Shown here piece by piece: positions 911 through 26,662 of a stretch of DNA of 64,000 bases. The notes under the pieces were generated by a model. It did no database searches, was not told where the DNA came from, and saw only the letters and a program-made list of their open reading frames with translations. Source of the stretch: Candidatus Heimdallarchaeota archaeon (GTDB taxonomy: Archaea; Asgardarchaeota; Heimdallarchaeia; Heimdallarchaeales; Heimdallarchaeaceae). A program made the translations under genes and the position numbers. Position 1 is the first letter of the stretch, and every line of letters begins with the position of its first letter. The stretch is taken from positions 224,001-288,000 of the forward strand of contig JAUVXV010000001.1 in the NCBI GenBank assembly GCA_030603365.1. The letters run 5' to 3'.

Positions 911-2449
911 ATGGCTAGTCAAACTAATACTTTAGCTATTCCCTGGGTAGAAAAATATCGTCCAGAACATCTTGTTGATTTTGTGGGCAATAGAAGTGCA
1001 GTTCAGGAACTAGAAAATTGGTTAAAAACCTGGAACCAGCAAAAGAAGAAAGTAGCACTTCTAGCGGGTCCTGCAGGAGTAGGAAAGACTAGTGTTGTTT
1101 ATTATTTGATTAAGAAGTATAAATACGAATTTGTAGAAGTCAATGCAAGTGATAAGAGAAACAAGAAAGCTGTTGAGTTATTAGTAGGTAAATCTTCAAC
1201 TGAAGGTACTGTTTTACAGGGAGCTAGGGTTCGAAAGTTAATTCTAGTTGATGAAGCGGATGGTTTGTTTGGGAATGAAGATAGGGGAGGAGGAAGTGCA
1301 TTAGGAAAAGCTGTAACATCGACAAAAGTTCCAATCATCTGTACTGCAAATGATCCTTCAGCAAAATCGCTGAAATCAGCAAAAAGAAGCATGAAAGTCA
1401 TTGAATTTCATAGATTAGAAGAAGATGAAATATTGCTTCTTCTTCAGAAGATAGCTGATAAAGAAAAAGTGAAAGTAAGTGATGCAACACTTATTGCTAT
1501 TACAAAAAATTGTGGGGGGGATGCTAGATCTGCAATTAACGATTTAGAAGGAGCGGCTTTTGGAAACATTGATAAAGAGATAACATTTGCTCCTAGAAAT
1601 CAACAACATAGTCTGGATAATGCACTAAATAACATCTTCAAAGCAAATAACTTCTATGATGTGAAATCCGCACTAGACGGAGTTGATGTTGATTATCGAG
1701 AGCTTCTAACCTATATTCATGAACATGCATACAAACAAGCAGAATCATCAGCTGAACAACTCAAAATGTATGAATTAATAGCTGTAGCAGATTTTTACCT
1801 TTCACAATGCTATATAAAACAGGACTGGAAGTTCCTAAAATATTTCTTTACATTTATCTCGTCTGTTGGACTTGTTAAAACTTCTTCATTCAAATATACT
1901 AAGTATGGCTTTCCTAGCTACTGGTCTCTTATGGCGAGACTTCGTGGAAAAAATGCAAAAATAAAGAGCATCGCAGATAAGAGTATTAAACACCTTCATT
2001 GCTCAAGAAAGTTATTTCAAAATGAATATTATCCCTTCCTACGAATAATCTTCAATACTGACCCTAAAATGGCAGGGGGATTAACAACTTGGTTACAATA
2101 TAGTGATGATGATCTCAATTTTCTAACAGATGGTTCTAGTAAATTAATAAAGAGAATAAAAGATCATGCTGAGGAAGCTTATCTACAAATGGCTGGGGAT
2201 TGGATTAAAAGGGCAAAGAATATGGAAAAGAGTTTGCTCTTTTATAACGAACCAGCAAAAAAGAAGAAAGTAAAGTTTACTTCTTCTAAAAAAGTCAAAG
2301 AAAACATAAAAAAGGTAGTAGAAATCAAGGATGAAACTCACGAGAAAGAATCTGAAGAAGAAAAAACTTCAGAAAGTGATAATTCATCAGAGAAGAAAAC
2401 CAATAATAATAAAAAATCTCAAACATCTCTAGAGAAATTTGTCAATTAG
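911..2449 (+). CDS. rfcL: Replication factor C large subunit
   Basis: PWVEKYRP, Walker A GPAGVGKT, EVNASD, Walker B ILVDEAD, GDARSAINDL; C-terminal PIP box QTSLEKF. Confidence 0.95.
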   Translation: MASQTNTLAIPWVEKYRPEHLVDFVGNRSAVQELENWLKTWNQQKKKVALLAGPAGVGKTSVVYYLIKKYKYEFVEVNASDKRNKKAVELLVGKSSTEGTVLQGARVRKLILVDEADGLFGNEDRGGGSALGKAVTSTKVPIICTANDPSAKSLKSAKRSMKVIEFHRLEEDEILLLLQKIADKEKVKVSDATLIAITKNCGGDARSAINDLEGAAFGNIDKEITFAPRNQQHSLDNALNNIFKANNFYDVKSALDGVDVDYRELLTYIHEHAYKQAESSAEQLKMYELIAVADFYLSQCYIKQDWKFLKYFFTFISSVGLVKTSSFKYTKYGFPSYWSLMARLRGKNAKIKSIADKSIKHLHCSRKLFQNEYYPFLRIIFNTDPKMAGGLTTWLQYSDDDLNFLTDGSSKLIKRIKDHAEEAYLQMAGDWIKRAKNMEKSLLFYNEPAKKKKVKFTSSKKVKENIKKVVEIKDETHEKESEEEKTSESDNSSEKKTNNNKKSQTSLEKFVN

Positions 2450-2465
2450 GAAGAAAATACAAAGT

Positions 2466-2786
2466 TTATTTTTCCTCTTTAGTTTTTGAAATTTGATCAC
2501 CTAGAGGAAACATGAGACCAGATGAAAGAAGGAACTGTAACATTTTCTTGAAGTTAGAGACCATATAGATATCAGTACCTGTTTTCTTTCTAACCATCCG
2601 ATTTTGTACTAAGTAATCTATGCATTTCAGCACATCCTTTTTTCTAATACCAGTAACATCTATTAATTCATCTAAGCTCATTCCTTCTTCGTATAAACTT
2701 AAAGAAACTGCTACTACACCAATATTAACCCTATCAATTACATCACTAGGGAGTTCTATGTCTTCTTCTGGTTTTGTATCATCCAT
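2466..2786 (-). CDS. Small winged-HTH protein (TrmB/MarR-like)
   Basis: GMSLDELIDVTGIRKKDVLKCIDYLVQNRMVRK wHTH pattern; start overlaps stop of upstream PRT gene. Confidence 0.7.
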   Translation of the reverse strand: MDDTKPEEDIELPSDVIDRVNIGVVAVSLSLYEEGMSLDELIDVTGIRKKDVLKCIDYLVQNRMVRKKTGTDIYMVSNFKKMLQFLLSSGLMFPLGDQISKTKEEK

Positions 2787-3411
2787 TCTTATTCATCTCA
2801 TTCAAATTGCCATTTTTTAATATTAAGGAGAAATAAGTATCGACTAAGGGGGGAGGAATCCCAATGTCTTTTAATTTCTTTCTTATTTCTTTATTTGACA
2901 TCTTATCACAGTTTGTTTTATATTGAAATGCAGTAAACTCACCATATTCCCATGGGTATACTACCCAAGACTGTGTTTCTTTTATATAGTAATTAGGTTT
3001 GACAATGCTATGATTTTTGTAATATAGTGTTGCTGTCCTTATTTCTTTTGCTCCCTTTTCCTTAATGTGATCTATAGCAGCAACTAAACTCTTTCCACTA
3101 TCTGCAACATCATCTACAATCAGAACAATTTTCCCCTCTACTCCTTCTGAGATTTCTTGGGTAATAATAGGATTTTCAGTGGCTCTAGAAGTATTATCAT
3201 AGAATTCAATCTTAATATTCGCTGTTCTTTTGTTCCCATAAAAATCAGCTAATAATCTAGCTGGTATCCAACCGCCTCTAGCTATACCAACAATTACCTC
3301 TGGATAAAAATTATCTTCAGTGATTTTCTCAAATAAATAAAAGGTCATTTGATAGCTTTGATCCCAAGATACAATCTCATAATCTTCCATTTTTTGTTCA
3401 CACAAAAACAA
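2779..3411 (-). CDS. Type I phosphoribosyltransferase (purine PRT-like)
   Basis: VGIARGG loop, PRPP-binding VLIVDDVADSGKSL, WVVYPWE. Confidence 0.9.
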   Translation of the reverse strand: MFLCEQKMEDYEIVSWDQSYQMTFYLFEKITEDNFYPEVIVGIARGGWIPARLLADFYGNKRTANIKIEFYDNTSRATENPIITQEISEGVEGKIVLIVDDVADSGKSLVAAIDHIKEKGAKEIRTATLYYKNHSIVKPNYYIKETQSWVVYPWEYGEFTAFQYKTNCDKMSNKEIRKKLKDIGIPPPLVDTYFSLILKNGNLNEMNKNG

Positions 3412-20054: not shown

Positions 20055-20142
20055 CAGGTGTAGGAAGGAATATTGAAATTAGTCCGTCCAACGTCTTGCA
20101 AAAAGAATCTCAAGAAACCTTCCGCACCAATATTCCTTCTCA
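20055..20142. ncRNA. Candidate structured sRNA (12-bp closing stem)
   Basis: GAAGGAATATTG 20064-20075 / CAATATTCCTTC 20128-20139, inner TCTTG/CAAGA stem; no ORF; TATA-like elements face it from both sides. Confidence 0.5.
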
Positions 20143-23395: not shown

Positions 23396-23537
23396 TGGTA
23401 GCGCCGACTAGACTTGAACTAGTGATCTTCGGGTTTCAGAGTCCAAAATCCACGAATTCTGAACTTATGAGCCCGACGGGTTTTCCATGCTTAGGGATTA
23501 TGAGGAAGATCATCCGCATAATTTACCCCACGGCGCT
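23396..23537 (-). tRNA. Initiator tRNA-Met(CAU) with two introns (33 nt at 14/15, 23491-23523; 31 nt at 37/38, 23435-23465), CCA encoded
   Basis: Spliced: AGCGCCG TG GGGT AGCATGGAAA ACCC G TCGGG CT CAT AA CCCGA AGATC ACTAG TTCAAGT CTAGT CGGCGCT A CCA; A1:U72 and three G:C pairs in the anticodon stem mark an initiator. Confidence 0.92.
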
Positions 23538-23686: not shown

Positions 23687-25294
23687 TTATAGTTTTCTCA
23701 GACGTTTTCGTAGATTTGTACTTATACTACTTAAGCCTAGAAATGCGAACAACGTTATTAGTATCGTAATAGATGATCCTTCAGTGTTTTCACCAGTAGT
23801 TTCAGTTATTGTCACACATTCATAATCATAGACAAATGGGTAAGGATCAGTATTGTTGTCTTTTCCGTCTATTTGATACTCTCCTATTCCTTCATGATCG
23901 TTCCAATAATTCCCTTCATCTGTTGCGCTTTCATACCATCTATTGTTGTACCCCTCATCATATGCCTGAGAATAACCATGCTCTGTACCATCTCTGTTGT
24001 TGCAGATGAAGTAATTATGATGAATTTTATTCCAAGTTGACACTTCATAAATATAAATGCCATAGTCAATATTTCTAGTTAGTACATTGTATGAGATTGT
24101 CGAAAAATCTGTTTCTCTTATAATAATTCCATTAATGTTGTTGTTACAGGTATTATTTGAAAGAATAATAGAATTCGCAATCCAAAGACGTATGCCTATA
24201 TCATTGTTATAACATAGATTAATACTTACAGAAGAGATACTTCTAAAAATATCAATTCCATAACTGTTATTAAACACCGAGTTACTCATTACATAGTTTG
24301 ACGTACTCAGAAGTACATCAATACCTGTTTGTATGTTATAACTACAAATGTTTTCAGTTATCATAGAATAGGAATCATCAGTAATATAAAGACCAGTAAA
24401 ACCGAAACTGCAGTTATTTTCTTTAACGGTCATTGTTCTAGAATGCTCAAGTTTAATACCATAATGACTCCTTAGACAAACATTGTTATGGATTACTATA
24501 GTATTAGAGTAAAATGCATAAATTCCATAATATGATTTATTACAGAGATTATTGGAAATGGAACTTGCACTCGAGCTTAGAAAACTTAATCCCCAAACGT
24601 TATTAACTAAAGTATTGTTATTTGCGTCTATTATACTAGAATACAATATATGAATGCCAGAATTGGAATTATTATAACAATAATTTTTGTATATTTGAAA
24701 ATTCATAGTTTCATACAATGCAATCCCAAAATCATTTTCATAACATTCATTATCCCCGATATATCCGTTATCAGAGAAATACACTACTATACCTGAAGCA
24801 CTTCCACCACATTTGTTATTTGATATATTAACATTATCTGTTGAGTAAACATAGATTCCATACCATTCTCTCCCATGACAAACATTATTGTTAATTTCAA
24901 TTGTATCTGAAGTTATATTACTTAGACTTATTGCGGATATTTGTGAAGTAATCACACAATTTTGAATTATGAAGTTTTTTGAGACATTGGTGATAAAAAT
25001 TCCGAATTCCAGATTTGTTTCAATAGTTATATATTGAATAAGATATGGATTTTGTATTGTTCCATTTCCAGAAAATCCATAGAAATCAAAATCTACATCA
25101 TCCATAATTATTATAGGTTCAGTGATGGAATTTTTAATTCTGTTTACGTTACCAAAAGTTTGGTATGGTTCTATTTTATAATTTAATGTCTCATTCGGTA
25201 AAATAATTGATTGATTCATACCAGTTGAAAATAGAATTGTAAAAGTAGAAATGATTAACCAGAAATTAATGAGATAATAGTACTTCTTTCTCAT
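23687..25294 (-). CDS. Cell-surface parallel beta-helix (NosD/CASH) protein
   Basis: Signal peptide, GNGTIQNPYLI, repeated NNxCxxNxxGIxL, GNYWND..DPYP, C-terminal TM anchor. Confidence 0.88.
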   Translation of the reverse strand: MRKKYYYLINFWLIISTFTILFSTGMNQSIILPNETLNYKIEPYQTFGNVNRIKNSITEPIIIMDDVDFDFYGFSGNGTIQNPYLIQYITIETNLEFGIFITNVSKNFIIQNCVITSQISAISLSNITSDTIEINNNVCHGREWYGIYVYSTDNVNISNNKCGGSASGIVVYFSDNGYIGDNECYENDFGIALYETMNFQIYKNYCYNNSNSGIHILYSSIIDANNNTLVNNVWGLSFLSSSASSISNNLCNKSYYGIYAFYSNTIVIHNNVCLRSHYGIKLEHSRTMTVKENNCSFGFTGLYITDDSYSMITENICSYNIQTGIDVLLSTSNYVMSNSVFNNSYGIDIFRSISSVSINLCYNNDIGIRLWIANSIILSNNTCNNNINGIIIRETDFSTISYNVLTRNIDYGIYIYEVSTWNKIHHNYFICNNRDGTEHGYSQAYDEGYNNRWYESATDEGNYWNDHEGIGEYQIDGKDNNTDPYPFVYDYECVTITETTGENTEGSSITILITLFAFLGLSSISTNLRKRLRKL

Positions 25295-25372: not shown

Positions 25373-26417
25373 TTACAGCCAATCCGTTGAAAGTGTTTCT
25401 CGCATATTAGCAAATTGATACAAATCGTCAGGACCAATTACAGCAAGTGCATAGTCATAAGTTTCTTCTTTTGCATAATAGAAAGCATCGGTTTCATTAT
25501 AACCTAAGTGCAAACCCTCAAAGAAGAAGTGCGTAAATGCACCGCCCCAAGCTCCTTGGTCACCATCACTTTCATTATATCTCGTCCCATTTACTCCATA
25601 CCATCTTGCTGCTTGTGTAAAATTAGCAGCTGTCGCAGCAAAAAATGGGTCATTTTGATGTTCTGGTTTCTCAAATTCAAGTATGAAATCGCCACTATGA
25701 CATGCTTCAATTAAGAAGATAATGTCTGAAGCTTCTAATTCAGCTAATTTATCTATGAAATCCGCAGCTGTAAAATTAATGTTTTGATTCTCCATAGTTT
25801 GATAATAAAGATAGGAATGCCATTCCCTATTAGGAATAATACCCGTTAATCTATTATCACCATGTGTTATAACATATATGAAAACTAGAGAGAATGAACT
25901 TTCATATGTGTCAAGATCATCTATCGCATCTTCCCAATATGATGCGTTTTCATAGTATAAGACATCTGTAAAACTTTCATTGTAAATTAAATCATCTCTT
26001 AATTCGTCTATAACTGTTCTATTAGCAACATCGGATGCCCATAAAAAAAGAGCAGCTTTACCATAAAGTGTTAAATCTTCTTCATGTTCTGCATTTGTGA
26101 TGAGAACATATTTGCTAGTAAACTTATACCCATCTTTTTCTATGCTTATCGAGTAGAATTTGAGTTTAACTGTAGTCCAAGTGAACTCATAATATCCATT
26201 AGAATCCGTATAATCTGTCCTTTTTGCTGAACCATCTTCTAATAATTGTACTTTCACTCCACTTACTGCTTCAAGTGACCAATTTAAGTAAACTGTTCCA
26301 TTGAAGTCTACTGACCCATAATATAGAGCTGCTTCTGCGTGATTCAAGTTTCCATAAAATGTTGGTACTGCAACTTAATACCAACACTAGTATTACTATT
26401 TTAATGCTTTTTTTCAT
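25373..26417 (-). pseudogene. Secreted clan CD (caspase/legumain-like) cysteine peptidase with N-terminal carboxypeptidase-regulatory-like domain; +1 frameshift in the signal peptide
   Basis: His-Cys dyad VITHG ... IEACHSG, GAFTHFF; ATG 26417 gives MKKSIKIVILVLVL, then one extra base near 26375-26377 separates it from VAVPTFYGNLNHAEA/ALYYG. Confidence 0.7.
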
Positions 26418-26603
26418 TATTTTTCTACCATCCATAGTAGGTAACTAGCAGACGATTTTTCACTATTTAAAACAAAAGAAAATTAACCGACAAAATAACT
26501 TCTATTTGTAACTTAAGGTAGATTGTAATACAGCACTTTTTCTATAATTCACCTTCTCTGAATTATGGAATACATTTTTTAATAACAGTTAGTTTTATAT
26601 CTT

Positions 26604-26662
26604 GATGAGTGGGATTGGAATTCTCTACCATCCATAGTAAGGGTTCTTATTCCCACCTCATC
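26604..26662 (+). ncRNA. Candidate antisense hairpin sRNA carrying a 16-nt complement of the neighbouring gene's leader
   Basis: GATGAG/CTCATC, TGGGA/TCCCA and GGAATTC/GGGTTCT stems (G-U pairs favour the + strand); apex TCTACCATCCATAGTA (26624-26639) is identical to 26424-26439. Confidence 0.6.

Follow-up and report, generated by a model that had tools for sequence, protein, structure and literature searches.

The window analysed here is a stretch of 64,000 nucleotides from the genome of a Candidatus Heimdallarchaeota archaeon (family Heimdallarchaeaceae; genome G000), and coordinates given without a contig or locus name refer to it. Proteins closely related to those of this genome bear the names Heimdallarchaeota or Heimdallarchaeaceae. 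On its minus strand lies a gene (25373-26417) for a putative secreted clan CD (caspase/legumain-like) peptidase with a signal-like N-terminus and an Ig/transthyretin-like domain, frameshifted near 26375, accompanied by the gene for a NosD-like beta-helix protein with a C-terminal hydrophobic anchor (23687-25294, minus strand), the usual downstream partner in the subfamily of the window locus. A 16-nt sequence occurs twice upstream of the peptidase reading frame, at 26424-26439 and 26624-26639, as reported in the first-pass annotation of this DNA. The first copy, read on the minus strand, is the putative target site; it falls within ~20 nt of the 5' end of the predicted transcript, folds as a 6-bp hairpin and provides a weak Shine-Dalgarno (SD)-like stretch, 6 nt before the ATG at 26417. 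The second copy, read on the plus strand, is antisense to this leader and forms the guide segment (upper 5' arm, loop and upper 3' arm) of a predicted small RNA (sRNA) hairpin at 26604-26662 (plus strand, 3' end predicted), which is closed by the terminal GAUGAG/CUCAUC stem of the subfamily B scaffold described below.

No third exact copy of the 16-mer is present anywhere in the 3.65-Mb genome, and the only one-mismatch copies in the whole genome are those of a paralogous pair, 195 bp apart (C15:84267/84462). A 16-nt repeat was absent from 3000 dinucleotide shuffles of the window region, the longest being 15 nt and encountered once. The first-pass annotation had also claimed a better fold on the plus strand, and folding of both strands agreed, the 59-nt hairpin having an energy of -23.2 kcal/mol on the plus strand versus -18.3 kcal/mol on the minus strand (z-scores -3.7 and -2.0, respectively). 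Its 8-nt apical loop falls within the second copy of the 16-mer. A purine-rich BRE-like stretch and a TATA-like box (26567-26585, plus strand) constitute the predicted sRNA promoter, identified by its fixed spacing across the modules; the box, a T-run at 26575-26580 followed by AATAA, lies ~29 nt before G26604. The peptidase gene has a TATA-like box of its own at 26464-26472 (minus strand), in a position shared with six other loci of the subfamily; it had been recognised earlier but placed one base off, at 26465-26472. From the start predicted by this box, at ~26443, the minimum-energy fold is the leader hairpin CUACUA-UGGA-UGGUAG, exactly as had been proposed. A second, upstream ATG (26435), overlooked earlier, lies inside the 16-mer and in frame with the ATG at 26417. 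A search of the genome for trans targets of the window RNA found none except the paralogue.

Two other structured sequences were observed in the window. The first (20064-20139) has a 12-bp terminal stem, a C-rich interior and a TATA-like box upstream, with a different scaffold, and a genome search gave no target for it. The second (23396-23537, minus strand), just downstream of the protease cassette, is tRNA-like, with a CUG anticodon loop, a CCA end and a D-arm region interrupted by a long insertion, and was not called by ARAGORN or Rfam.

The target peptidase

In the window peptidase the His-Gly motif lies near 25865 and the Cys motif near 25700, both of them intact, and H195, G196 and C247 are invariant across 10 homologues. 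A structure model of the C15 paralogue matches MALT1, metacaspase and legumain in Foldseek searches. The assignment of the target gene to the clan CD peptidases, with a His-Gly/Cys dyad on a caspase-like fold, is thus supported, and reading of the sequence by eye suggests that the product is secreted. The claim that the 16-mer precedes the ATG of this gene at 26417 holds for the 6-nt spacing, but this ATG is out of frame with the open reading frame at 25373-26347. Comparison with the intact C15 paralogue places a 2-nt gap near 26375, a frameshift near codon 14-15 that had been overlooked. Since the coding density of the genome is normal (0.905), a pseudogene and a local assembly error are both possible for the window copy.

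The hairpin family and its locus-specific guides

Pattern searches yielded 26 hairpins, which include 21 with an adjacent cognate target, two that run off contig ends and three whose adjacent target is lost or absent (L053, L062 and L068). A covariance model that was not trained on them added two more (L289 and L302), both of which have a cognate target (-36 and -40 kcal/mol). The resulting 28 related hairpins, 57-72 nt in length, all belong to one Heimdallarchaeaceae genus, and their loci are kin rather than independent. Twenty-three of them hold their own distinct 8-16-nt exact copy of the ribosome-binding/start region of the neighbouring gene; the copy extends up to 26 nt when mismatches are allowed, and the distance from guide to target is 164-216 nt. 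In other genomes, homologous peptidase genes are preceded by the hairpin at a distance of 185-220 nt from the start codon, and the tops of those hairpins are differing copies of each gene's own pre-start region.

The members fall into two scaffolds, B (GAUGAG...CUCAUC), which is that of the window, and A (GGAGCUAG...CUAGCUCC). The terminal stem is almost invariant over some 30 loci, an invariance that was partly selected by the search pattern used, while the top is variable; A-U, G-U and U-G variants of the terminal stem occur at L284, L302, L260 and L289. RNAalifold detected no two-sided covariation, since the terminal stem does not vary and the inner stem resists alignment.

Co-variation is observed between the two copies of the repeat. 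The paralogous C15 locus has kept the module with an identical one-base change in both copies, and across seven close pairs of loci eleven core positions are changed in both copies, a count that is partly circular because the cores were defined as exact matches. Among the homologous loci the hairpin is retained and loop and leader co-vary at 23, and a recognisable module is absent at several homologous peptidase genes (L019, L021-L024 and L051). A miniature inverted-repeat element (MITE) with a target-site duplication was considered as the source of the repeats and rejected, as the repeat lies inside the hairpin and the geometry is fixed relative to the promoter and the start codon.

Searches with models and patterns in 83 genomes of the class and 400 of the phylum, which divergent scaffolds would escape, found no members outside the genus. 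Rfam reported nothing at the gathering score for eight module loci. The exact hairpin pattern gave one chance bacterial match in metagenomes and none in viral contigs, and the terminal-stem pattern gave only chance matches over all genomes and viral contigs; the latter served as controls in the analysis of the promoters.

Promoter and direction of the predicted transcript

In 24 of the 26 modules, a TATA-like box oriented antisense to the gene precedes the hairpin by 20-23 nt and has a purine-rich stretch before it, and no such box was seen at this spacing on the far side of the 19 subfamily A hairpins. The box and the repeat occur together in 18 of 26 modules as against none of the 221 chance matches sharing the terminal stem, a comparison that is lenient for the TATA-like box because most of the chance matches come from GC-rich genomes. 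The fixed spacing therefore predicts an RNA whose 5' end is the first stem G (26604 in the window). Judged from these sequence features, each hairpin is predicted to be an sRNA gene with a promoter of its own, adjacent to and divergent from its target. The G-U polarity of the internal mismatches gave no significant indication of the strand (13 versus 9, p=0.26). A sigma-70/terminator scan was also run, a method ill-suited to archaea. The hairpins are not terminators of the gene beyond, because the orientation of that flanking gene differs between the loci.

A conceivable alternative is that the hairpin is active in the sense orientation of the gene, where a decoy or an upstream leader would titrate a factor that binds the real leader, or that it is a neutral relic of a leader duplication. 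The sense fold of -18.3 kcal/mol in the window and the better sense fold in 8 of 26 loci (the antisense strand being better in the other 18) are in keeping with this. However, the conserved promoter faces the opposite way, no conserved sense promoter lies upstream, and the concerted changes in the two copies argue against neutrality, which makes a sense-strand role or a relic extremely unlikely.

Position of the target site and predicted pairing

The target site tracks the start codon rather than the promoter. In the scaffold B genes and at L042 it begins 28-33 nt from the first base of the gene's TATA box, at the 5' end of the mRNA, which in most of these loci folds into a hairpin of 4-6 bp. 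For the remaining scaffold A genes this distance is 48-59 nt, and the site lies behind a separate 5' leader hairpin that is variable in sequence and starts at the predicted transcript start. The reading of the 16-mer as a semi-palindromic operator present in two copies, which had been offered as an alternative, draws on its weak palindromy and the location of one copy near a transcription start, but it is barely credible, as the sequence is different at every locus, no other genomic sites exist and the position is tied to the start codon and not to the TATA box.

The apex of the sRNA lies inside the guide in 18 of 21 cases. The loop-loop contact suggested by the first-pass annotation fits the window's subfamily, in which the leader loops AAACCA, AUACCA, AUAGCA and UGGA stand opposite matching sRNA loops, but is weaker in the second subfamily. 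After subtraction of the cost of unfolding, the mean net binding is -6.0 kcal/mol for cognate pairs versus +3.1 kcal/mol for non-cognate pairs, and the cognate leader is the best partner in 18 of 19 cases. The single mismatch between the window and C15 loci reduces the cross-binding from -4 to 0 kcal/mol. The net binding is modest at the window locus itself (-4 kcal/mol) and unfavourable at one locus. Pairing over the SD sequence and start codon of the target is thus obtained in silico.

Members without an adjacent target

A subgroup of the hairpins is located downstream of unrelated genes, without an adjacent target. In their guide, as many as 25 of 26 nt agree with the SD sequence and first codons of a conserved 40-aa open reading frame on another contig, which encodes a charged coiled coil and heads a chromosomal operon. 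The RNA and this target co-occur in five genomes, with net energies of -18 to -27 kcal/mol, and a reversed-pattern control for the guide gave no match. As the target is on another contig, neither duplication nor recombination of local DNA can account for these trans members, which a diffusible RNA can explain.

The conserved operon with the 40-aa coiled-coil frame was observed at L361, L362 and L358 (around 1500-3000) and in the genome of the window (C14:311474), and also holds a short acidic open reading frame and a gene for a large coiled-coil protein. Further copies of the micro-ORF are present at C7:87021, C7:88689 and C11:66422. In a second orphan subgroup (L285, L290 and L298), the guide pairs more weakly with the start of the 40-aa frame.

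Target genes, cassettes and degenerate copies

The predicted targets are mostly putative secreted proteases of 350-520 aa, caspase-like or subtilase. Besides the family of the window peptidase, they include metacaspase-like (C14) and subtilase (S8) proteins, as well as a cluster with a cysteine-rich peptide and radical-SAM gene. Of the subtilase cassette, this genome contains five copies or more. Duplicated 3' ends of genes flank the cassettes in an island-like manner at G000 C2 (C2:43240/47543), L262 and L270, the duplicated host genes at these three loci being formate-tetrahydrofolate ligase-like, cysteinyl-tRNA synthetase-like and one of unknown function; no flanking duplication was found at the window and C15 cassettes. 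Many cassettes are broken. Two have no DNA between the repeats (G000 C9:125917-125963, and L040 on G020:C30), the left arm and guide being fused directly to a broken gene start.

In the radical-SAM cluster (L260:4027-5917; G000 C1:340026 onward), the module precedes an open reading frame for a 40-aa cysteine-rich peptide and a radical-SAM gene that is split. At C1:342770, before a truncated third copy of the peptidase, lies what remains of a hairpin carrying the L260 guide. Degenerate related hairpins were also observed upstream of the 230-aa partners in the subtilase cassettes (G000 C1:698152, C9:127403, C7:2752 and C2:47200), with guides that are mismatched to the adjacent gene. A sequence search against solved structures gave no match.

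At L271 and L272 (G000 C14:86629-86573 and C3:31470-31414), a TATA-like box is followed after 22 nt by a 57-nt hairpin starting with GAUGAG, which opens a conserved, structured leader of ~270 nt in front of TnpB/Cas12f-like genes of 510-530 aa. These hairpins resemble scaffold B, and no cognate target was found for them.

Probable mode of action and alternative explanations

RNase III is usually said to be missing from archaea (PMC11404451, PMC3510493). [quoted passage not shown] PIWI/Argonaute was detected in one of 31 genomes of the family and not in G000, which is 89% complete; a genome of the genus with a module (G016) carries two PIWI-domain genes (L389 and L390).

The interpretation that we consider probable is that the hairpin is an antisense sRNA, whose loop nucleates pairing over the translation-initiation region, with a block of ribosome loading and perhaps cleavage by RNase III. 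The claim of a locally encoded, non-overlapping antisense repressor made in the first-pass annotation is supported by the retention of the hairpin, the co-variation, the direction of the predicted promoter and the failure of the 16-mer to recur as a genome-wide operator, repression itself being predicted. A small antisense RNA gene with its own TATA promoter would stand back to back with the gene that it controls, its invariant terminal stem serving as a scaffold and its variable top as a copy of the translation-initiation region of the target. Pairing would nucleate between the loop and the mRNA 5' end of the cognate gene, through a loop-loop contact in the window's subfamily; the duplex would then grow to 16-26 bp across the SD sequence and start codon, so blocking ribosome loading, and the RNase III of the lineage may subsequently cut it. 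One scaffold could in this manner serve many targets, namely the caspase-like and subtilase cassettes, the radical-SAM peptide cluster and, in trans, the 40-aa open reading frame.

Alternatively, the hairpins may be guide RNAs for a protein, the stem being recognised in RNase III processing or by some other RNA-binding effector. With the variable top, this effector would locate either the mRNA or, immediately after the promoter, the DNA that matches it. In favour of this, the stem is nearly constant over some 30 loci while the top varies, and a single scaffold is applied to unrelated targets in cis and in trans; the length of 57-72 nt is pre-miRNA-like, RNase III is widespread in the class, and two TnpB/Cas12f-like genes of this genome have a TATA-driven leader that starts with a similar GAUGAG hairpin. 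However, the modules are not accompanied by an effector gene, PIWI was detected in only one of the 31 family genomes and not in G000, and the guide spans the loop instead of one arm. Besides, plain masking of the ribosome-binding region can explain why the target follows the start codon, and the invariance of the stem may reflect recent common descent. On balance a protein-guided mode appears unlikely, and the same holds for its wider form, a reprogrammable guide-RNA system of Heimdallarchaeia with an effector-read scaffold that silences in cis and in trans without Argonaute.

The repeats could also be DNA recombination sites, at which a deletion would eliminate the two promoters and thereby silence the cassette, or scars of cassette movement. 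Two loci (G000 C9:125917-125963 and L040) do look like exact deletion products, and several cassettes lie between duplicated gene ends. Both putative deletion products, however, have broken genes, as would result from accidental loss, and recombination leaves unexplained the hairpin, the promoter, the mismatch-interrupted pairing beyond the core and the targets on other contigs; it is very unlikely as the explanation of the family.

Comparison with known systems

Enterobacteria have type I toxin-antitoxin loci that are divergently encoded, such as tisB-istR1 and shoB-ohsC. At the zorO-orzO and zorP-orzP loci, the antitoxin OrzO acts with 18 nt of complementarity, paralogue specificity and RNase III dependence (PMC3919570). 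The modules described here resemble such loci in having a separate sRNA gene beside the target, a limited complementarity of 15-20 nt to the leader, paralogue specificity conferred by one to three bases, a suggested kissing start and an available RNase III. They differ in their targets, which are secreted proteases of 350-520 aa, a RiPP-like cluster and a coiled-coil micro-ORF rather than small hydrophobic toxins, any toxicity of these products being hypothetical; in the location of the guide at the hairpin apex of a reusable scaffold; in covering the SD sequence and start codon directly; and in their archaeal promoters. Thus, the type I antitoxin-like logic proposed earlier applies to the predicted divergent sRNA gene and its 15-21 nt of paralogue-specific complementarity but not to the nature of the target, and the Heimdall hairpins do not belong to the type I class as defined, because their targets are not small hydrophobic toxins.

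The sRNA162 of Methanosarcina mazei is an archaeal sRNA that masks the ribosome-binding site and start of targets in cis and in trans (PMC3510493). It is a single longer RNA, which overlaps the target that it has in cis and uses an unstructured linker for pairing, whereas the Heimdall hairpins are a multi-member, non-overlapping family with one dedicated guide per target. The plasmid antisense systems CopA/CopT and RNAI/RNAII form mirror-image stem-loops with specificity set by the loop (PMC3919570). Co-variation is automatic in them because a single stretch of DNA encodes both the antisense RNA and its target, unlike the Heimdall guide and target, which are two separate co-evolving copies. 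Asgard loci with rnc, Argonaute and helicase genes have been linked, through HrAgo1, to a proposed early RNA-silencing pathway (10.1101/2023.12.14.571608); the likeness lies in an Asgard lineage with RNase III/dsRBD, but the present genome has no Argonaute and that paper describes no native hairpin genes.

Other classes of RNA were considered and rejected. A box C/D guide RNA does not fit, as the UGAUGA-like start is present in subfamily B only and is base-paired, and no CUGA is conserved; an H/ACA guide RNA does not fit the variable 3' flanks and the apical guide. The flanks are inverted and not direct, as opposed to those of a CRISPR mini-array or CreA-like RNA, and no cas effector genes were seen beside the modules. 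A pre-miRNA or Argonaute guide precursor is at odds with a guide that spans the loop and with the lack of PIWI in G000.

Significance

Regulatory sRNAs that act by base pairing were not described for Asgard archaea in any paper found by a literature search, in which subscription journals were mostly missing. The hairpins constitute an uncatalogued, multi-target antisense family of one Heimdall genus, with cis- and trans-acting members, which probably switches its targets off. With their predicted targets, natural loop/leader swaps and members acting in cis and in trans, they make translational control in Asgard archaea testable, in vitro or within a model archaeon, without culturing the host. 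They are also candidate substrates for the Heimdall RNase III and suggest that large secreted proteases carried by mobile cassettes are under an RNA control akin to that by antitoxins. Should the guide-RNA system, unlikely as it appears, prove true, it would be a prokaryotic equivalent of gene silencing by hairpin precursors, situated in the class of archaea that is closest to eukaryotes.
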